This document shows, one piece after another, positions 28,060-64,000 of a stretch of 64,000 nucleotides of DNA. The stretch spans positions 3,582 through 67,581 of the forward strand of contig CAZLBV010000215.1 of assembly GCA_964557845.1 (NCBI GenBank), in the 5' to 3' direction. The notes under the pieces were generated by a model that was not told where the DNA came from, searched no databases, and saw only the letters and a list, made by a program, of their open reading frames with translations. Position 1 is the stretch's first letter; every line of letters begins with the position of its first letter. A program made the translations under genes and the position numbers. Origin of the DNA: an uncultured Eubacteriales bacterium (GTDB taxonomy: Bacteria; Acidobacteriota; Aminicenantia; Aminicenantales; Aminicenantaceae).

Positions 28060-28629
28060 TTATTCAATGACTGTAAATTCCCACGCACAATAGACATCCG
28101 GAGGATGAGGATCAGGAGGGCAGGTTATACATCTGGTCTGTATTCTGGGATCGATGGTGCGGGCAAAACCGCTGTACTCAACGACCCCTACAGGCTTGCA
28201 GGGAAAATCCGGTAATCCCTTTCTTTTCCTAGCATCCTGGACCCTGCACTTGTTCATCCGGAAAACACAACTGTTTTTCTGGATGTCGATGACCTCCTGG
28301 ACGTTGATATGGGCATAGAGCCTGAATTTTAAAGCTTGAATTAAAGCAGGTATACCACCCCCTGGCTGGATATTAAGACGATTCATGATCCTTTTGGCTT
28401 CAATGACGGTAAAATCCTCCCAGGCTGTTTTGTCCAACTCCATCGCTGTTTCCATCCCGAATTTTTTTTCTGCAGCCTGAAACCATAATCCGTCATGGGC
28501 CAACCAGTTTTTAGCGGCGTCTTTAAGAAGTTCCCTTAATTCCTCCTTGGACATATCTTGGATTTCTTTCATTATTTCTCCTATGACCTGATTTTTATTG
28601 TTTACAGAAGTTCTTTCAGACCGGTTCAT
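28060..28629 (-). CDS. hypothetical cysteine-rich protein, co-transcribed with a radical SAM gene
   Basis: 189-aa ORF whose start overlaps the radical SAM gene end by 14 nt. The C-terminus is Cys/Pro-rich (CRVQDARKRKGLPDFPCKPVG...RCITCPPDPHPPDVYCAWEF). I recognise no family. Confidence 0.35.
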   Translation of the reverse strand: MNRSERTSVNNKNQVIGEIMKEIQDMSKEELRELLKDAAKNWLAHDGLWFQAAEKKFGMETAMELDKTAWEDFTVIEAKRIMNRLNIQPGGGIPALIQALKFRLYAHINVQEVIDIQKNSCVFRMNKCRVQDARKRKGLPDFPCKPVGVVEYSGFARTIDPRIQTRCITCPPDPHPPDVYCAWEFTVIE

Positions 28630-29563
28630 AATATTTTAGATTTTTATATATAACGATTTTTATTTTATTTTCTTGCAGGAGAGAATTCAATTCTTTTAGG
28701 ACCGCGTTTCTATGTTTCCCAAGGGATGAGGAAATATCTTCAAGAGTGACAGGCCTCCTTTTTACCATATCAAGAATTTGGCTGGCTATATTTTCCTGAT
28801 AAGGAGGCTGGTCTCCACCCTGGAATTCTGCGATGATTTCTGCTTTATCACCGAGAAATTTTTGAATTTCTTCTAACCGTGACCTGCTTATCGGTTGAGC
28901 TGTAATTTCAGCAGGTGGGCGAACTACCGTATTGAGATGGATTTTGTCCGGGCGGATTTTTTCTATGACTTTTTTTAATTTTAACAGATGAGTATGTGAG
29001 TCATTGACATTTTTGACAAAAAGGATCTCGAGCCATATTTTACCATTGTATTGCTTTCTGAATTCAATCAAACCTGATAAGATCTCTTTAAGTTCAAGTT
29101 TAGGGTGAGGGCGGTTAATCTGTAAAAATACATCCTGAGAGGCCGCATCCAATGAAGGAACGACCAGGTCTGCCTTCTTTAAGTCCTGCCTGACTTCTTC
29201 TTGAGAAAGGAGAGTACTGTTAGTTAAAACAGCAACCGGAATATCAGTAAATGCTTTGATATTAGTTATCAATTCTCCAATTATTTTATTGAGAGTGGGT
29301 TCTCCTGAACCTGAAAAAGTAATGTAGTCGATATGGTGCCCAGTTTCGATGGCTTTCTTTATGCCAGCTAGAATTTCTTTTATAGAAAAGTATTTTTTTC
29401 TTTCTACAGTCTTTTTAGGGGTCGTCCCCAACTGGCAGTAGATGCAATCCAAACTGCAGGTTTTATATGGCAAGATATCTATTCCTAAAGAATAACCTAA
29501 CCTGCGTGAAGGTACTGGTCCATAAATGAATGTCTTTAGGTTTTTATTTTTAATTTTAGTCAC
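28616..29563 (-). CDS. radical SAM enzyme (CxxxCxxC) of a subfamily with an N-terminal YGPVPSRRLG motif and a C-terminal winged-helix-like tail; function unknown
   Basis: 315 aa with the radical SAM cluster motif CSLDCIYC after GPVPSRRLGYSLGIDI. A paralog with the same architecture lies at 59993-60943. Confidence 0.8.
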   Translation of the reverse strand: MTKIKNKNLKTFIYGPVPSRRLGYSLGIDILPYKTCSLDCIYCQLGTTPKKTVERKKYFSIKEILAGIKKAIETGHHIDYITFSGSGEPTLNKIIGELITNIKAFTDIPVAVLTNSTLLSQEEVRQDLKKADLVVPSLDAASQDVFLQINRPHPKLELKEILSGLIEFRKQYNGKIWLEILFVKNVNDSHTHLLKLKKVIEKIRPDKIHLNTVVRPPAEITAQPISRSRLEEIQKFLGDKAEIIAEFQGGDQPPYQENIASQILDMVKRRPVTLEDISSSLGKHRNAVLKELNSLLQENKIKIVIYKNLKYYEPV

Positions 29564-58866: not shown

Positions 58867-59877
58867 TTACAGAAAAGCATTGGTTACATCAAATTTCTTA
58901 TCAGTTAAGCTTACATAAATTATTCCACTCAGTTTTGAGATTAACTTCTCGGCATCTTTGCGGTTTTCTAGGCCACTGGTCAGAATGACAAGGACATAGG
59001 GCTTTCGACCCTCAGGAAAAACAATGGCGGCATCATGGTCGATATGGGTAATGGAGCCGGTTTTATTGGCAACCTTGATTCCTTCCGGAAGTCCGGCCGG
59101 TATCTTGGCCTGGAACTTCTGCTGGGCCAGGATCTCGATCATTTCCCGACATGCCTCCGGCGAACCGGCTTTCCCTTCGGCAATGGAAAGCATGACCTGC
59201 ATTGTGCTCAAAGCATCGGTCCTGTTATTAAGACCTTTTTCATAGGCTCTGGTATCCTCGACTCCCCGTAGGACTTTCATGTTGTAGATCCCCATTTCTT
59301 CCATGGTCGTCATAACATTTTTTGCTTCCACAAGTTCGATGAGGATGTTGGTGGCCAGATTGCTGCTCAATGTGATCATGTGTTCTATCAGTTCTCTGAT
59401 AGACAATTTTTCTCCGATGAGTCCATAAATATCTTCATCTGAATCGTCGGCCGCATAGAGTGAATAAAGACTCCCATCTACGATGCTTTTAAATTGATTA
59501 GTAACGGGGATTTTATCATTCAGGCTGAACTTGCCTCTTTCTGCCTGCTGAAATACTTCGATCATAACCGGGACCTTCATCAAACTGGCGGCATGCATCA
59601 TCTCTTCGGCATGGATCAGCAATTCTTCCCCTGTTTCCAGATCTTTCAGCGCCAAACTCACTTCTGCCTCGGATTTTCTGATCATATTTTCTACGTGATT
59701 TTTTAGCTGTTCGGTTTTTCCGTTATGAAACGTCAAGGGATGGTCTATTAGATCTAACTGACTGCCGAACAAAATATCCAAGTCATCAGGATTGATGGAA
59801 CCTGCGGAGAAGATCAAAGTTCCGGTTATCAGAGAGAATAGTACCAATATAGAAAATGAAGCTTTTATTTTCAGCAA
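58867..59877 (-). CDS. class A beta-lactamase-family serine hydrolase, secreted
   Basis: 336 aa with a signal peptide, SxxK (AASLMK), SxN (SSNLATN) and KTG (NKTGS). Confidence 0.7.
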   Translation of the reverse strand: MLKIKASFSILVLFSLITGTLIFSAGSINPDDLDILFGSQLDLIDHPLTFHNGKTEQLKNHVENMIRKSEAEVSLALKDLETGEELLIHAEEMMHAASLMKVPVMIEVFQQAERGKFSLNDKIPVTNQFKSIVDGSLYSLYAADDSDEDIYGLIGEKLSIRELIEHMITLSSNLATNILIELVEAKNVMTTMEEMGIYNMKVLRGVEDTRAYEKGLNNRTDALSTMQVMLSIAEGKAGSPEACREMIEILAQQKFQAKIPAGLPEGIKVANKTGSITHIDHDAAIVFPEGRKPYVLVILTSGLENRKDAEKLISKLSGIIYVSLTDKKFDVTNAFL

Positions 59878-59992: not shown

Positions 59993-60943
59993 CTATAGTT
60001 TTCTCATATAATATTTATTCCCTTGATAGCTTAGCTCGATCAGTTTTTTTTCTTTGATCAGCCTTTCAACCGTATCCCAATCTTCCTGAGCTTTTTCCAA
60101 AAAGATCTTCATCGCTTCTTGCCTCATGGGATGTACGGATACGATACTTAAAAGATCCTCCTCCACATTTCCAGTGTAGGCAAAAGCGTTTCCCTCATAC
60201 CCAATAAGGTATTCTGTGCCGAGTTCCTGTTCCTTAAAGATCTGGTAGGCAGAATTAATATTATATTCTGTGGCAGGCTTCACCCATTCTTCGGCTGGAG
60301 GCCTGATCGGAATAGATATATAGCTTTTTTTGGGATTAAGGGTTTTTATAAAAGCTGCAGTTCTTTCGATTATTTCAGCTTTATCATTCATATCCTGTAT
60401 AAGCATGGTTTCAGTTACCAGGTCTCCTTTAAAAGATTTGGAAAACTCTCTGGCCCCATCCAAAATTGAATGAAGATCGAGCCCTTTGTGAGGCCGGTTG
60501 ACTGCATGCCACATATCCTCATCAACCGTGTCCATCTTCAAAGATACCCAGTGTGCCATGCTCAAGTCTTTTCGCACATCCTCCCTCCAAATTAAGGAAG
60601 CATTTGATATGACGGCGATCCTTCTGTCTGTTTTTCTAAGCTGTTCAATTTCCTTTCCCAGATTTTCATCCAGCGTTGGTTCTCCGTCAGGAACAAAAGT
60701 GAGGTAATCGATGGGCTCCTGGCTTTCTTGGGCTTTTTGGATCTTTGTTTTGACAGCTTCTACTACCTCATCCGGCTGATAAAAGGTTTGCCGTTTGATC
60801 TGCATATTTAGAGTTCTTCCTAGTTGACAGTATACACACGCGTATGTGCATATTTTAGGAGGAATATTATTTATTCCAATACTCTGTCCCAAACGCCTTG
60901 AGGGGACAGGACCATAAGCTATCATCGTTTTTTCATCAAGCAT
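59993..60943 (-). CDS. radical SAM enzyme, paralog of 28616-29563 (YGPVPSRRLG N-motif, CxxxCxxC, winged-helix-like tail)
   Basis: 316 aa with AYGPVPSRRLGQSIGINNIPPKICTYACVYCQLG. Its C-terminus ends ...LSYQGNKYYMRKL, and the paralog ends ...YKNLKYYEPV. Confidence 0.8.
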   Translation of the reverse strand: MLDEKTMIAYGPVPSRRLGQSIGINNIPPKICTYACVYCQLGRTLNMQIKRQTFYQPDEVVEAVKTKIQKAQESQEPIDYLTFVPDGEPTLDENLGKEIEQLRKTDRRIAVISNASLIWREDVRKDLSMAHWVSLKMDTVDEDMWHAVNRPHKGLDLHSILDGAREFSKSFKGDLVTETMLIQDMNDKAEIIERTAAFIKTLNPKKSYISIPIRPPAEEWVKPATEYNINSAYQIFKEQELGTEYLIGYEGNAFAYTGNVEEDLLSIVSVHPMRQEAMKIFLEKAQEDWDTVERLIKEKKLIELSYQGNKYYMRKL

Positions 60944-60959: not shown

Positions 60960-61619
60960 TTAAATGGGCCATTCTTGTTTATGATAAACCGCCTCCCAAA
61001 ATAAAAATTCATATCTGCTTGCGGCCGTGAATACGTATTTTAATCTACCATATGGGCACTCTTCTCCGGCTTTATTAACCAGAGTTTGTATCTTTTCTAC
61101 CAGATTGAGGTAGGAATCAGTGAGATAGACATTTCCCCAGTCTTGGTATAGTTGAATTTTGTTGGTTCTTAAACTTTCCCGGTGGTGGCCGGCGATCTCA
61201 GCATAAGACCAGAAACAAGGAAGAACTGCAGTCATTGCTTCAGCATATGATTTCAAAGAGCTGGTAGTCAGGAGAAAACTGCTGTAGGAGAGATTTATAG
61301 GAATAGGATCAATTTCTGAGGCATCTGTTAGAGTGTAGCCGAGCCTTTCCACTAGTTTTTCGTATCCGTCGAATTCGCTGGTGGCTTCCAGGTTGAGTAT
61401 GTTAATGATCTCTCTCATGGCTTCAATGGAAGGCGCTTTGGAGGCGATAATTGCGAAATTTTTCATAGCTGCGACAAGATAGTGATAATCTTGCAGGATG
61501 TAAAATTTGAATTTTTCCAGGGGGAGATCCCCTTTGAATAATTCCACCACAAAGGGATGCTCGAATATTTTATTCCAGATAGGAGCTGCATCTTTTCTCA
61601 GCCGGCCAGATAGACTCAT
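60960..61619 (-). CDS. tenA: TenA/Thi-4-family aminopyrimidine aminohydrolase (thiaminase II)
   Basis: 219 aa with N-terminal W...HPFV..L..G.L....F..Y..QDY.YL, which is the TenA signature. A catalytic Cys candidate is present (LPCFWSY). Confidence 0.7.
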   Translation of the reverse strand: MSLSGRLRKDAAPIWNKIFEHPFVVELFKGDLPLEKFKFYILQDYHYLVAAMKNFAIIASKAPSIEAMREIINILNLEATSEFDGYEKLVERLGYTLTDASEIDPIPINLSYSSFLLTTSSLKSYAEAMTAVLPCFWSYAEIAGHHRESLRTNKIQLYQDWGNVYLTDSYLNLVEKIQTLVNKAGEECPYGRLKYVFTAASRYEFLFWEAVYHKQEWPI

Positions 61620-63091
61620 GATTTTCTTCCCTGAACGACTACATAATCACCTTTGTCATAGCCTTCCACTGGTTCTTCCAGTTCATCATTGGTGTATTTG
61701 GGATGTTTTGTCAAGGTCTGTACAAATTTCAGATCCTTGAAACCTGCTTGCTTTAATAAGGAGATTGTTTCTCCAGTGGAAAGCCATCGGGTCCCTCGGA
61801 TAAATTTGACTGGATAAGGATATTTGGGGGAAATTTCCGGGTCATGCCGTCCGCGAAGATAGGCCAGATCATACATCATGGCATAAGAGCCTTCTCTAGT
61901 TAAATAAGAAATGACCACATGCCCTCCAGGTTTGAGAATACGGTAGGCCTCGTAGACCGCCTGCTGCGGATCTTTGGCATAGCTTAAAATAGTGCTCAGC
62001 AGGACCGTATCAAACATCCCGTTAGGAAAGGGTACCTTCTCGGCAGTTCCGATCTTAACTTCGATTCCTCTTTTTCTCGCCAGATCAGCCATTCCTTTGG
62101 CGGGTTCGACTCCATATTTTATTCCCAGTTTTGAAGCAAATAAACCGCTTCCTACCCCGATACTTATAGCCTTTCCGGGATTTTTTAAAAATTGCTTTTC
62201 TGCCAGAAGCTCCGAATCAAAAATAATCCGGTTTTTATCAAACCAGGCATCAAAATCCCCGGCTTCTTCTTCAAAAGCCGATGGCTGGAGAGGTTCAATT
62301 TTATGGTACAGGGGACCGTTTCCTGATCCAAGATTATCGGGAGCATTTTTAATGGCACGGAAAATATAATCTTTGGCAGCTTCGATCGAGTTATGGATAT
62401 TCATCCCCTTGGCTAAGCCAGCGGTTATGGCGGCAGAGTAGGTGCATCCAGTTCCGTGGGTATTAACCGTATCGATTCTTTCAGATCTAAAATAATGATA
62501 AGAGCCCCCATCAAACAGAATGTCAACCGCCTCTTCTTCCTGAAGATGCCCTCCTTTCAGAAGCACATAGCGCGGGCCTTTTTTATGGATGATTTTAGAG
62601 GCTCTCTGGGCATCTTCGATATTCTTGATCGAGATCCCGCTGATTATTTCCGCTTCAAGGACATTAGGAGTGACAAGATAAGCAATCGGCAGTAATTCTT
62701 CGATCAAGGATTTTTCTGCCTCTTTCTGCAGAAGACGGTCGGAGCTTTTGGCCACCATCACCGGATCGACCACCAAAATATTCAGTCCATATTTTTTTAT
62801 TCTGTCTACAATGGTCTCTATTATTTCTTGATTGGAAACCATTCCTGTTTTTATCCCGTTGGGGCTGATATCTTTGATTACAGCATCAATCTGAGCACCG
62901 ACTATTTCTGCAGGGATATCGTGGACAGCGTACACTCCTTTTGTATTTTGGGCGGTTACAGCGGTCAGCACCGACATCCCATAAACACTGAACGCATGAA
63001 ATGTTTTCAGATCAGCTTGTATGCCTGCGCCGCCCCCTGAATCAGAACCTGCAATGGTAAGTGCTTTTCCCTCATAATTCATTTTTCTCAC
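61616..63091 (-). CDS. thiD: fusion protein: hydroxymethylpyrimidine/phosphomethylpyrimidine kinase ThiD (N-terminal ~265 aa) + class I SAM-dependent methyltransferase domain (C-terminal ~220 aa)
   Basis: 491 aa. The ThiD part carries LTIAGSDSGGGAGIQADLKTF, the ribokinase-fold anion hole GTGCTYSAAITAGLAKG and DVDPVMVAKS-like motifs. The C-terminal part has MTase motif I (ISIGVGSGLFASKLG), motif II (VLLST) and a post-II region. The gene overlaps tenA by 4 nt. Confidence 0.8.
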   Translation of the reverse strand: MRKMNYEGKALTIAGSDSGGGAGIQADLKTFHAFSVYGMSVLTAVTAQNTKGVYAVHDIPAEIVGAQIDAVIKDISPNGIKTGMVSNQEIIETIVDRIKKYGLNILVVDPVMVAKSSDRLLQKEAEKSLIEELLPIAYLVTPNVLEAEIISGISIKNIEDAQRASKIIHKKGPRYVLLKGGHLQEEEAVDILFDGGSYHYFRSERIDTVNTHGTGCTYSAAITAGLAKGMNIHNSIEAAKDYIFRAIKNAPDNLGSGNGPLYHKIEPLQPSAFEEEAGDFDAWFDKNRIIFDSELLAEKQFLKNPGKAISIGVGSGLFASKLGIKYGVEPAKGMADLARKRGIEVKIGTAEKVPFPNGMFDTVLLSTILSYAKDPQQAVYEAYRILKPGGHVVISYLTREGSYAMMYDLAYLRGRHDPEISPKYPYPVKFIRGTRWLSTGETISLLKQAGFKDLKFVQTLTKHPKYTNDELEEPVEGYDKGDYVVVQGRKS

Positions 63092-63220
63092 CTTTCATTA
63101 TTGAATTGATCAAATTATGTATTATAAAGGAATAATAATATAATAGTAAATCAAACTTTTGATCAATGCTGAGCCGTTTTTCTCCGGTTGGATGAACTGT
63201 TTTTTTGGAAGGCATTGGCT

Positions 63221-64000
63221 TTATGAGAACCCTAATAACTTTCCAACCTGATAAACAACGAAGGTTATAACACTGGCCATAGATAGGGACACGAGTAAGC
63301 TCATCAGCAGCCATTTAATACTTCTGGTTTCCTTCCAGGTTGCCCATACAGTGACAAGGCATGGCAGATAGAGCATATAGAAGGTTAGAAAAGAAAAAGC
63401 CGTTAGGGGTGTAATGGTTTGCACCAGATAATTCATAATGGTATGGGAATCTGCCAGAGTCGTTTGTAAACCATATGTCATGGCTAGAGATGAGACAACG
63501 ATTTCCTTGGCAGGGAGGGTAAAAATAAGCGCTGTGAGCATTTCCCCGCTGAGGCCGAAGGGCTGCCCAAATGGGTGTAGAAGGCTGACCATATGGCCAA
63601 CTGCGGTTTGCTCAAAAGCAGAATCGGGCGGGAGATTGCCCATAATCCAGATGATGATCATGGCAGGAGCAGCGATCATTACGGCCCTGCCGATAGTGTG
63701 CCCAACCTGGTGGATCAATGAACGCCGGATGACCTGCCCCCATTTGGGTTTCCGGTAAGGGGGAAGTTCCATTACGAATCCGCCCGGTTCCCGTTTAAAA
63801 AAAATTCGGTTTAAGATCAGTGTCGCCAGAAGCATAGCCCCAATACTTATAGCCAGGAAAGTCAATGTAACCGCCAAGGCATGATCTTTGAAGAAAAGGA
63901 TGATAAGAGCCAATCCTGCTCCGAATCTCCCGTTACACAGTATAAGCGGACTTGTGATAACAGCAATGATGCGGTCTTTAGCATTTTCAATAATACGGCA
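63221..64000 (-). CDS. feoB: ferrous iron transporter FeoB, C-terminal membrane-domain fragment (5' part beyond window edge)
   Basis: The reverse-strand frame is open from 64000 to the stop at 63221-63223. It contains the FeoB hallmark MELPPYRKPKW and gate-motif-like membrane helices. Confidence 0.65.
   Translation of the reverse strand, partial: CRIIENAKDRIIAVITSPLILCNGRFGAGLALIILFFKDHALAVTLTFLAISIGAMLLATLILNRIFFKREPGGFVMELPPYRKPKWGQVIRRSLIHQVGHTIGRAVMIAAPAMIIIWIMGNLPPDSAFEQTAVGHMVSLLHPFGQPFGLSGEMLTALIFTLPAKEIVVSSLAMTYGLQTTLADSHTIMNYLVQTITPLTAFSFLTFYMLYLPCLVTVWATWKETRSIKWLLMSLLVSLSMASVITFVVYQVGKLLGFS

Follow-up and report, generated by a model that had tools for sequence, protein, structure and literature searches.

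A ThiD-methyltransferase fusion and a methyltransferase clade linked to thiamin salvage operons

The 64-kb stretch of DNA analyzed here (the window) encodes a protein in which ThiD is fused to a class I SAM-dependent methyltransferase. The methyltransferase half belongs to a clade that is almost confined to the thiamin salvage operons of anaerobes, where it adjoins TenA. We consider it fairly probable, judging from sequence and gene context, that the fusion is a two-enzyme protein whose methyltransferase acts with TenA and ThiD on a heterocycle of the pyrimidine side of thiamin metabolism. The data presented below directly support the identities of the two domains, the integrity of the SAM motifs, the purifying selection on both halves, and the linkage to TenA and thi genes. 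The features of the locus are the following.

61616..63082, minus strand: ThiD::methyltransferase coding sequence, 488 aa plus a TGA stop, single uninterrupted frame
62303..63082, minus strand: ThiD domain (HMP/HMP-P kinase), residues 1 to 260, from Pfam, TIGR00097, and PDB matches
62279..62302, minus strand: interdomain linker, residues about 261 to 268, from AlphaFold pLDDT and the start of stand-alone relatives
61619..62278, minus strand: class I SAM methyltransferase domain, residues 269 to 488, thiamin-linked "PYP" clade of the TM1293/1VLM family
62144..62158, minus strand: motif I, G309-V-G-S-G313, predicted SAM-binding glycine loop, from alignments
61811..61852, minus strand: clade-specific 14-residue insertion, residues 411 to 424 (GRHDPEISPKYPYP), from an alignment and its presence or absence
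63088..63093, minus strand: Shine-Dalgarno sequence AGGTGA, read from the sequence, 5 nt 5' of the ATG at 63082
63121..63150, minus strand: promoter-like site TTTACT-18 nt-TATAAT, 10 of 12 consensus positions, candidate operon promoter
61616..61619, minus strand: ATGA overlap of the fusion stop and the tenA start (tcat on the plus strand), translational coupling
60960..61619, minus strand: tenA, Cys-type thiaminase II, 219 aa, from Pfam, TIGR04306, and PDB matches
59993..60943, minus strand: radical SAM gene, 316 aa, COG0731-like, Pfam Radical_SAM, 16 nt after tenA, optional member of the cassette

The fusion gene and its ThiD half

In the list of open reading frames, the gene spans 61616..63091 on the minus strand and encodes 491 aa if read from a GTG, and this was the form given in an initial reading of the DNA that used the sequence only. 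The frame of that reading stands, and its start is to be replaced: the true start is most likely the ATG at 63082, which gives a product of 488 aa, since the GTG at 63091, which would add 3 codons, falls within the AGGTGA Shine-Dalgarno sequence and the ATG follows 5 nt later. A database protein of 488 aa (P0001) is identical to this product (100% identity and coverage). The overlap of 4 nt with tenA was also recognized correctly, but it had been assigned to the stop region of tenA; it involves the tenA start (ATGA), and tenA lies downstream. In most related loci, the fusion gene and tenA likewise overlap by 4 nt or lie no more than 3 nt apart. The region contains 14 promoter-like sites, compared with 10.2 expected from shuffles, and the match at 63121..63150 is not above this background. 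No TPP riboswitch (RF00059) was detected in the window at the gathering threshold or, at E values of up to 10, over positions 62900 to 63400, and no further thiamin genes were found in the 64-kb window besides the fusion-tenA cassette.

The ThiD half is predicted to be a canonical HMP/HMP-P kinase in which all catalytic motifs are present. The Pfam profile PF08543 (Phos_pyr_kin) matches residues 14 to 258 (E = 1e-94; 316.9 bits versus a cutoff of 27), and the NCBIfam model TIGR00097 yields 344.4 bits versus a cutoff of 204.95, with 253 of its 254 profile positions covered. The motifs of this half are GSDSGGGAGIQADLKT, DPVMVAK, and HGTGC; they provide the N-terminal GSDSGGGAG loop, the DPV of the Mg/ATP site, and the HGTGC anion hole with Cys213, and Lys176 is present as well. 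Solved phosphomethylpyrimidine kinases match this half with an E value of 3e-88, and their motifs align identically. The proposal that ThiD is genuinely fused to a class I methyltransferase in one open reading frame is borne out. In the AlphaFold model, residues 268 to 273 are the only segment with a pLDDT below 50, and stand-alone relatives of the methyltransferase start at about the linker (residues about 261 to 268). Ordinary ThiD proteins (PDB 7R8Y, 1UB0, and 1JXH) lack the ~220-aa C-terminal domain of the window protein. The known ThiD fusions, which we take to be yeast THI20/THI21 (ThiD-TenA, PDB 3RM5), archaeal ThiDN (ThiD-ThiN), and ThiD-ThiE (NF007070-type), likewise join ThiD to an enzyme of thiamin synthesis or salvage, with TenA as a functional neighbor, but the partner here is a SAM methyltransferase. 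PDB searches with either half of the module also retrieved THI20.

The chance that the fusion is an artifact of assembly or gene calling, with a sequencing error joining two ordinary genes, is negligible. No point in its support was found, and several speak against it. (i) The initial reading had proposed a search for a frameshift or stop that would separate two genes; neither was found around codon 265. (ii) A protein identical to the window fusion is encoded on three independent contigs from different samples. (iii) Full-length homologs of 487 to 489 aa with 49 to 86% identity to the fusion make up more than 100 database clusters, which derive from various studies and phyla; the carriers include Aminicenantes, Acidobacteriota, Cloacimonadota, Latescibacteria, Thermoplasmatota, and Schnuerera. 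(iv) The junction residues P264, S268, F270, D276, D278, W280, and F281 are conserved across homologs. Averaged over alignment columns, conservation is practically the same in the two halves (0.74 for ThiD and 0.75 for the methyltransferase), and both are under purifying selection. As to whether the architecture is already common and characterized, it recurs in many phyla and is not a one-off, and no characterized example was found.

A methyltransferase subclade in thiamin operons

The C-terminal half has the seven-stranded Rossmann-like methyltransferase fold. Pfam Methyltransf_11 matches residues 308 to 391 (E = 1.5e-16), and the motifs S307-I-G-V-G-S-G313, the acidic E326-P327 after strand 2, and A347-E348-x-x-P351 are present. 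Among 78 fusion homologs, all of these motifs are invariant or nearly so, and the residues G309, G311, G313, E326, and E348 are invariant or at least 90% conserved, G309 and G311 being invariant and G313 nearly so; all three glycines are invariant in a 15-sequence alignment. Outside the SAM site, W280, F281, N284, E291, Y404, Y423, W433, and Q455 are invariant, and H460 is nearly so. E397 and Y400 likewise vary very little. The NCBIfam matches to this half (DVU_1556, ArsM, UbiE, and BioC) are partial and weak, all far below the cutoffs. End-to-end homology was found with the TM1293/1VLM family (domain residues 6 to 223, E = 1.4e-41), and 884 representatives score at an E value below 1e-10.

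We assign the methyltransferase half, from its sequence features, to a distinct subclade within the uncharacterized TM1293 family, which includes the structural-genomics methyltransferases TM1293 of Thermotoga maritima (PDB 1VLM) and TT1324 (PDB 2GS9). Thiamin-linked and 1VLM-like methyltransferases were aligned, and the presence or absence of the 14-residue insertion was scored in 44 sequences. Only the thiamin-linked clade carries it, with P419, P422, and Y423 invariant and P424 nearly so (P-x-x-P-Y-P), whereas the 1VLM-like relatives lack it. The clade is monophyletic in a neighbor-joining tree, and its bit scores (354 to 178) are sharply separated from those of the 1VLM-like proteins (about 140). 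The two groups also differ at S307, L314, S367, Y368, and W433 of the thiamin clade, which replace E, R, C, F, and F, respectively, of the 1VLM-like proteins. The fusion partners of the latter are unrelated, namely, C_GCAxxG_C_C, rhodanese, glyoxalase, HD, GalT, and HycI.

To describe the genomic context, 60 species-representative genomes were used; the denominators vary by feature. (i) A thi gene was present within the locus in 58 of the 60 genomes; two copies (L048 and L058) had no thi neighbor. (ii) TenA was encoded directly downstream of the clade methyltransferase in 51 of 55 loci. The window tenA matches Pfam TENA_THI-4 (E = 7e-46) and TIGR04306 (133.6 bits versus a cutoff of 130), and its active-site motif LPCFWSYAEIA is identical in PDB entries 1UDD (E = 4e-63) and 2GM7 (E = 1e-55). 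(iii) ThiD abutted the methyltransferase in 41 of 57 loci and Thi4 in 6, and thiM was located upstream in 7. (iv) The same clade occurs in other fusions: a ThiD-ThiN-MT protein of 696 aa, a Thi4::MT protein of 479 aa in the operon TPP riboswitch-TPK-ThiDN-Thi4::MT-tenA-thiC, and MT::TenA proteins in at least 25 clusters. (v) Stand-alone clade genes of 230 to 236 aa are found in many thi operons, including those of Halanaerobium (thiW-thiD-thiE-thiM-MT-tenA), Muribaculaceae (thiS-thiE-thiG-thiH-thiF-MT-tenA-thiD), and Mariniphaga (MT-thiM-thiE-thiL-thiD-tenA). They are very abundant in gut Bacteroidales, and one stand-alone ortholog is indexed in 3,322 blocks of the searched collection. (vi) TPP riboswitches were identified upstream of 11 operons (L007, L008, L037, L040, L056, L060, L061, L065, L067, L072, and L074). 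The pairing of ThiD and methyltransferase noted initially is genuine, but the more informative unit is the methyltransferase clade together with TenA.

Two further ideas were considered in the course of this comparison. Most operons lack thiC, and the methyltransferase might have been a substitute for ThiC; this was rejected as a rule, as the L040 operon has thiC. In Halanaerobium, a radical SAM/SPASM gene follows tenA. It was set aside, since a Moco riboswitch and an aldehyde:ferredoxin oxidoreductase gene come after it, and it is thus most likely part of that unit.

Proposed function and alternative readings

In thiamin phosphate synthesis, the pyrimidine substrate is HMP-PP. ThiD forms this compound, and the N-terminal half would be an ordinary HMP/HMP-P kinase making it. 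The C-terminal half would be a SAM-binding class I methyltransferase from a clade dedicated to thiamin metabolism, probably cotranscribed and translationally coupled with TenA and, in other lineages, under the putative control of TPP riboswitches. With SAM as the donor, it would methylate a small heterocycle related to thiamin, on the pyrimidine side of the pathway, and TenA and ThiD would be its partners in one functional unit. This proposal can take two forms. (i) A degraded or derivatized pyrimidine, for example, an S- or O-substituted HMP derivative as may be common in sulfidic, anoxic habitats, would be methylated, and TenA would then release HMP for ThiD. (ii) A toxic analog of HMP or thiamin, of the oxy-HMP or bacimethrin type, would be methylated so that a promiscuous ThiD could not activate it. 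We infer from the above data that the domain is catalytically active, that its substrate is of the pyrimidine type, and that the chemistry runs in the direction proposed.

Some observations speak against this proposal. The window gene has no upstream TPP riboswitch, and L048 and L058 have no thi neighbor. Furthermore, a purely pyrimidine-side role does not fit the copies that are fused or adjacent to Thi4, which belongs to the thiazole branch, in some cases with no TenA encoded nearby (L047, L050, L054, and L055).

Some Thermoplasmata carry a ThiD half that no longer has the GTG anion hole, whereas the methyltransferase half is still 65 to 68% identical; selection therefore acts on the methyltransferase. 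The joining of the domain to a degenerate ThiD, likely a pseudokinase, is also compatible with a noncatalytic module that binds SAM or another adenosyl ligand and has a regulatory or scaffolding function, as is its attachment to ThiD, ThiD-ThiN, Thi4, and TenA in the manner of a portable regulatory unit. In addition, the invariant residues include predicted binders of the adenosine part of SAM, and the binding of a different adenosyl compound, for instance the ADP-thiazole that Thi4 produces, would preserve the same residues. We nevertheless judge such a module to be unlikely, and this applies equally to its two variants, in which it would couple thiamin salvage to the SAM status or assemble a complex of ThiD, TenA, and Thi4. 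The occurrence of the domain as a gene of its own, of 230 to 236 aa, in many thi operons is what one would rather expect of an enzyme, and the invariant aromatic and acidic residues and the clade-specific loop extend beyond the SAM site, as expected for a substrate pocket. The initial reading had offered methylation of a pyrimidine precursor or analog and a moonlighting regulatory domain as two options; the latter is less likely because the domain is also a stand-alone operon gene, and the former would be the likeliest reading.

The radical SAM gene raises another alternative, namely, that the methyltransferase works mainly with this downstream COG0731-like enzyme on a nucleotide, an RNA, or a cofactor and that the link to thiamin is secondary. 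Among 53 genome loci, 10 have such a gene after tenA, and these come from both bacteria and archaea. In 7 of 80 metagenome loci of the radical SAM family, a 1VLM-like methyltransferase is encoded directly upstream. In L071, 13 nt separate the radical SAM gene from such a methyltransferase, which shares 32% identity with the domain of the window protein (E = 1e-40). A different or additional partnership is hinted at, since the gene found after tenA thus also pairs with 1VLM-like methyltransferases outside the thiamin context; two random radical SAM relatives, L070 and L071, are both outside thi contexts. This alternative is improbable, however. In most cases of ThiD::MT-TenA, a radical SAM gene is missing from the locus; the methyltransferases paired directly with such a gene have no PYP insertion and do not group with the thiamin clade; and the radical SAM family is very common (at least 8,000 matches), with a second paralog elsewhere in the window. 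No PDB homolog of the radical SAM neighbor was found, and NCBIfam returned only weak matches to viperin, TYW1, and MoaA.

The window cassette shares its three enzyme types with the bacimethrin cluster of Clostridium botulinum, which likewise encodes a phosphomethylpyrimidine kinase and a thiaminase besides a methyltransferase (bioRxiv 10.1101/2025.04.17.649140). It could thus be argued that the cassette makes a bacimethrin-type antivitamin, with the methyltransferase as the counterpart of BcmC, ThiD as the activating enzyme, and TenA for self-protection; we hold this to be very unlikely. The same low expectation applies to the role that BcmC would then imply, the O-methylation of a 5-hydroxymethylcytosine-like pyrimidine. 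The likeness is one of enzyme type; the bacimethrin cluster comprises thiaminase I, a ThiD-like kinase, and BcmC, whereas the window encodes TenA, a type II enzyme, and a ThiD half that matches the canonical biosynthetic ThiD. No thymidylate-synthase-like CMP hydroxymethylase or glycosidase is encoded within 10 kb (Pfam list covering 21 kb). Elsewhere, the methyltransferase occurs with thiE, thiM, thiL, thiG, thiH, and thiC under TPP riboswitches, so that the relatives, in contrast to the bacimethrin genes, are embedded in TPP-repressed cofactor operons. TPP riboswitches turn an operon off when TPP is plentiful, and this regulation therefore follows a logic of cofactor supply and not of toxin production.

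Implications for thiamin metabolism

To our knowledge, no described thiamin pathway contains a SAM methyltransferase reaction. In the literature searched, neither TM1293 nor a fusion of ThiD to a methyltransferase was found to be described, nor was any methyltransferase belonging to thiamin salvage or a TPP regulon; NCBIfam likewise yielded no characterized ThiD-methyltransferase. In the THI4 context paper, the sole mention of a methyltransferase is CobA. No paper or curated family was found for the thiamin-linked PYP clade, which is thus previously undescribed. This has a bearing on annotation, since the names that databases currently give to such proteins are limited to "bifunctional HMP/HMP-P kinase" or "class I SAM-dependent methyltransferase."

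Thiamin synthesis is regarded as fully mapped, which cannot be said of how its many breakdown products are salvaged or detoxified (PMC11223231). When clustering and riboswitches connect an orphan gene with thiamin, a function in salvage or detoxification is the general expectation (PMC11223231). One such case is OarX, a short-chain dehydrogenase of the TPP-riboswitch regulon that has been in the literature for 20 years; what ties it to thiamin is solely TPP riboswitches and its place in clusters of thi, transport, and salvage genes, and its role is presumed to be in salvage or detoxification (PMC11223231). The type of evidence is the same as that for the PYP clade, but the fold and chemistry differ. 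The repeated independent fusion to ThiD, Thi4, and TenA, together with the TPP riboswitches, points to a reaction that is not yet written in the pathway. There is, in our estimation, about an even chance that the methyltransferases with the PYP insertion represent a missing thiamin enzyme, catalyzing a SAM-dependent reaction absent from current pathway maps, for which the two methylations outlined above would be the candidates. If so, the users of this enzyme would be diverse anaerobes, among them soda-lake sediment bacteria, Thermoplasmatota, and the abundant gut Muribaculaceae. Since the carriers include organisms dominant in anoxic sediments as well as highly abundant gut Bacteroidales, the clade may affect the exchange of vitamin B1, its precursors, and its antagonists in these communities.

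The ThiD-methyltransferase fusion and its two domains

The gene encoding ThiD (HMP/HMP-P kinase) fused to a class I SAM methyltransferase (MT) has two candidate starts, and the following features bear on the choice between them.

61616..63091, minus strand: ThiD::MT ORF of 491 aa from a GTG codon (ORF finder)
63093..63088, minus strand: AGGTGA containing the GTG of the 491-aa frame (read from the sequence)

Since this GTG lies within AGGTGA, with an ATG 5 nt farther on (63082), the product is likely a protein of 488 aa starting at the ATG; homology search retrieved an identical 488-aa protein from the public collection (database protein P0001). Pfam detected Phos_pyr_kin in residues 14 to 258 (E = 1e-94) and Methyltransf_11 in residues 308 to 391 (E = 1.5e-16). 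The fusion scored 344 bits with the NCBIfam HMP-P kinase model TIGR00097 (cutoff, 205), its first 262 residues matched solved phosphomethylpyrimidine kinases (E = 3e-88), and the motifs GSDSGGGAGIQADLKT, DPVMVAK, and HGTGC aligned identically to them. By these alignments, the ThiD half is an ordinary, canonical member of its family. The last 224 residues matched PDB 1VLM end to end (E = 1.4e-41), the structural-genomics entry for TM1293 of Thermotoga maritima, described as a "SAM-dependent methyltransferase." The sequence-only reading, which had placed ThiD and a class I methyltransferase in one ORF, is borne out by these Pfam, TIGR00097, and PDB matches. AlphaFold2 produced a confident two-domain model (mean pLDDT, 89.4) in which residues 268 to 273 were the sole disordered stretch. 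The linker-coding region that encodes SAFEEEAGDFD contains a terminator-like hairpin (62259..62281, minus strand), which is probably a chance match, since such sites were no more numerous than in shuffled sequence.

The same reading had considered that a frameshift or stop might part two ordinary genes. Against this, homology search yielded over 100 clusters at the 90% identity level (487 to 489 aa; 100% query coverage; 49 to 86% identity), the fusion protein occurred in different samples on three independent contigs, one of them the 159-kb JGI contig 3300001335 ML8_10000347, from which the window evidently derives, and the junction was conserved in homologues; an artefactual fusion is thus refuted. 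Homologues carried the source labels Aminicenantes, Acidobacteriota, Cloacimonadota, Latescibacteria, Thermoplasmatota, and Schnuerera, and all named ones were labelled only [quoted passage not shown] Mean column conservation among 108 full-length sequences reached 0.74 in the ThiD half and 0.75 in the MT half, with 0.71 in the linker, so that similar constraint acts on both halves. In the homologue alignments, the residues of the SAM-binding signature (G309, G311, and G313; E326-P327; A347-E348-x-x-P351) were all invariant or almost invariant. The MT half is shown to be under purifying selection and to retain an intact methyltransferase fold that is predicted to bind SAM.

The methyltransferase clade within the 1VLM family

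When 1.84 billion representatives were scanned exhaustively with HMMER, the scores broke sharply. Five representatives scored 354, 328, 219, 202, and 178 bits, followed by 158 and 148 bits and then a plateau near 140 bits, which corresponds to a large family of stand-alone proteins of about 205 to 220 aa that includes 1VLM (884 representatives at E < 1e-10). The high-scoring group differs from these 1VLM-like proteins in a 14-residue insertion, which they lack (residues 411 to 424 in the window protein; P419, P422, and Y423 invariant and P424 nearly so), and in the replacements E to S307, R to L314, C to S367, F to Y368, and F to W433. All insertion-bearing sequences formed one clade in a neighbor-joining tree, but their monophyly is only suggestive because the tree was built without bootstrap. 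Outside this clade, 1VLM-like MTs were fused to C_GCAxxG_C_C, rhodanese, glyoxalase, HD, galactose-1-P uridylyltransferase, and HycI protease domains (P0137, P0146, P0150, P0195, P0209, and P0183).

Association with tenA and other thiamin genes

On the minus strand, positions 61616 to 61619 read ATGA, so that the fusion's TGA stop and the ATG start codon of tenA, the next gene downstream, overlap; the 4-nt overlap noted earlier therefore stands, at the start of tenA and not in its stop region. The tenA product is a Cys-type thiaminase II (TIGR04306, 133.6 bits; cutoff, 130) whose motif LPCFWSYAEIA is identical in PDB 1UDD and 2GM7, and the gene layout shows a predicted translational coupling of the fusion to this TenA. 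A radical SAM gene (316 aa) lies 16 nt 3' of tenA. Upstream of the fusion, a 129-nt gap to feoB contains a promoter-like site matching no better than background, and no TPP riboswitch was detected in the window at the gathering threshold, nor at E ≤ 10 in 62900 to 63400. Farther downstream, 116 nt past the radical SAM gene, is the following gene.

58867..59877, minus strand: 336-aa class A beta-lactamase-like protein (108 bits; cutoff, 200)

Its hydrophobic N-terminal stretch may be a putative signal or lipoprotein-type leader, and the gene is not conserved beside the cassette in other loci.

Using an alignment of the MT domain alone as the query, we searched one genome for each GTDB species and placed thiamin genes on the resulting 60 loci by tblastn. 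(i) A thiamin gene was present within 58 of the 60 loci. The tenA start was at most 120 nt from the MT end in 51 of 55 evaluable loci, ThiD abutted the MT upstream as a fusion in 41 of 57, Thi4 abutted it upstream in 6 loci, and thiM was upstream in 7. The counts of tenA, Thi4, and thiM thus reveal a partner range wider than ThiD alone. (ii) Fusions varied, including Thi4::MT (479 aa) in a Syntrophobacterales MAG (TPP riboswitch-TPK-ThiDN-[Thi4::MT]-tenA-thiC), a 696-aa ThiD-ThiN-MT triple fusion followed by tenA on one metagenome contig, and MT::TenA fusions in at least 25 clusters. ThiD fusions fell in at least three separate tree branches and Thi4 and TenA fusions in others, which suggests repeated independent fusion of the MT to thiamin enzymes. 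(iii) The MT was a separate gene in Halanaerobium isolates (TPP riboswitch-thiW-thiD-thiE-thiM-MT-tenA); other operons were found in Mariniphaga anaerophila (TPP riboswitch-MT-thiM-thiE-thiL-thiD-tenA) and in a member of the Muribaculaceae (TPP riboswitch-thiS-thiE-thiG-thiH-thiF-MT-tenA-thiD), whose MT the collection indexes in 3322 blocks. RF00059 aptamers preceded 11 MT-containing operons, and the clade is shown to lie within the thi and TPP regulon of related genomes.

Such promiscuous fusion would accord with a noncatalytic ligand-binding or scaffolding module, but stand-alone MT genes are abundant and many invariant residues lie outside the SAM site, and we consider this reading unlikely. 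Several Thermoplasmata fusions carry a degenerate ThiD half that has lost the kinase motifs, both the GTG anion hole and the N-terminal glycine loop being replaced, for example by KKEADCT in the case of NTHGTGCT (loci L032, L035, L036, L039, and L041; representative P0121). This half retains 34 to 41% identity and scores 124 bits with Pfam versus 317 for the window protein; the MT half shows 65 to 68% identity. The products are likely pseudo-kinase::methyltransferases. Taken together, genome linkage, varied fusions, riboswitches, and degenerate ThiD halves indicate that the MT clade is a dedicated component of thiamin metabolism and that its closest tie is to TenA, and hence to pyrimidine-moiety salvage.

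Two loci (L048, 5989 to 6681, and L058) contain stand-alone MTs of the clade without a thiamin gene within 6 kb; in type, they hardly differ from the copies adjoining thi4 in L047 and L054. Past the Halanaerobium thi operon (L067, 7437 to 11754; L061, 8545 to 8664) lie a radical SAM/SPASM gene with an AbrB-type N terminus (by eye only), a Moco/tungsten riboswitch, an aldehyde:ferredoxin oxidoreductase gene (read from the sequence), and MoaD- and MoeB-like genes; the radical SAM/SPASM gene probably encodes a tungsten-enzyme maturase unrelated to thiamin.

The MT might instead be a partner of the radical SAM enzyme encoded downstream, given that such a gene lies 3' of tenA in 10 of 53 genome loci and that, among 80 metagenome loci of the radical SAM family, a 1VLM-like MT is directly upstream in 7 and ThiD::MT-TenA is present in 1. 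The link between the 1VLM-like and radical SAM families is real. However, most thiamin-clade loci lack a radical SAM gene and the family is very common, with a second copy in the window, and we regard this partnership as quite improbable.

28616..29563, minus strand: second radical SAM gene (315 aa), a paralogue of the copy after tenA (33% identity; tblastn E = 2e-51)

In L071 (4355 to 5957), L075, L078, L081, L090, L098, L112, and L140, an MT of about 210 aa without the insertion lies directly upstream of a COG0731-like radical SAM gene (gaps of 9 to 319 nt), outside any thiamin context; the two may form a conserved pair.

Proposed role of the methyltransferase

A published argument holds that orphan genes linked to thiamin should function in salvage or detoxification, since the routes of synthesis are complete but no fate is known for at least 14 degradation products (PMC11223231). 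We infer that the MT methylates a small thiamin-related molecule, acting together with TenA and ThiD. In one version, the MT would activate an S- or O-substituted pyrimidine for salvage, its methylation allowing the addition-elimination chemistry of TenA to release HMP for ThiD. In another, it would act as a gatekeeper by methylating an HMP analogue and so excluding it from the cofactor pool; ThiD is known to activate such analogues, bacimethrin among them (bioRxiv 10.1101/2025.04.17.649140). A role restricted to the pyrimidine side does not accommodate the cases in which the MT is fused or adjacent to Thi4, some of which have no tenA in the vicinity. Judged solely from taxon labels and sample types, carriers come mostly from anoxic sediments, digesters, hypersaline and soda lakes, and gut. 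Synthesis of a bacimethrin-like antivitamin is very improbable: a methyltransferase, a thiaminase, and a ThiD-like kinase are likewise encoded together in a Clostridium botulinum cluster (bioRxiv 10.1101/2025.04.17.649140), but CMP hydroxymethylase and glycosidase were absent from the Pfam list for the 21 kb around the gene, and the riboswitches follow the logic of cofactor supply.

Several fusions that join ThiD to another enzyme of its pathway are well known, such as ThiD-TenA (yeast THI20), ThiDN, and ThiD-ThiE; here, the partner belongs to a SAM methyltransferase clade. To our knowledge, no thiamin pathway has a SAM methyltransferase reaction for this clade. We found no description of the clade in the literature, and NCBIfam and Pfam offered only generic domain models; the earlier statement that no characterized ThiD-methyltransferase fusion was known to its author agrees with this search. 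The folds and the predicted ThiD function are known, whereas the thiamin association of the clade appears undescribed and well supported, and its catalytic step is probably new. The association of ThiD with an MT, known from the comparison of sequences alone, would surprise a thiamin specialist and is directly testable.
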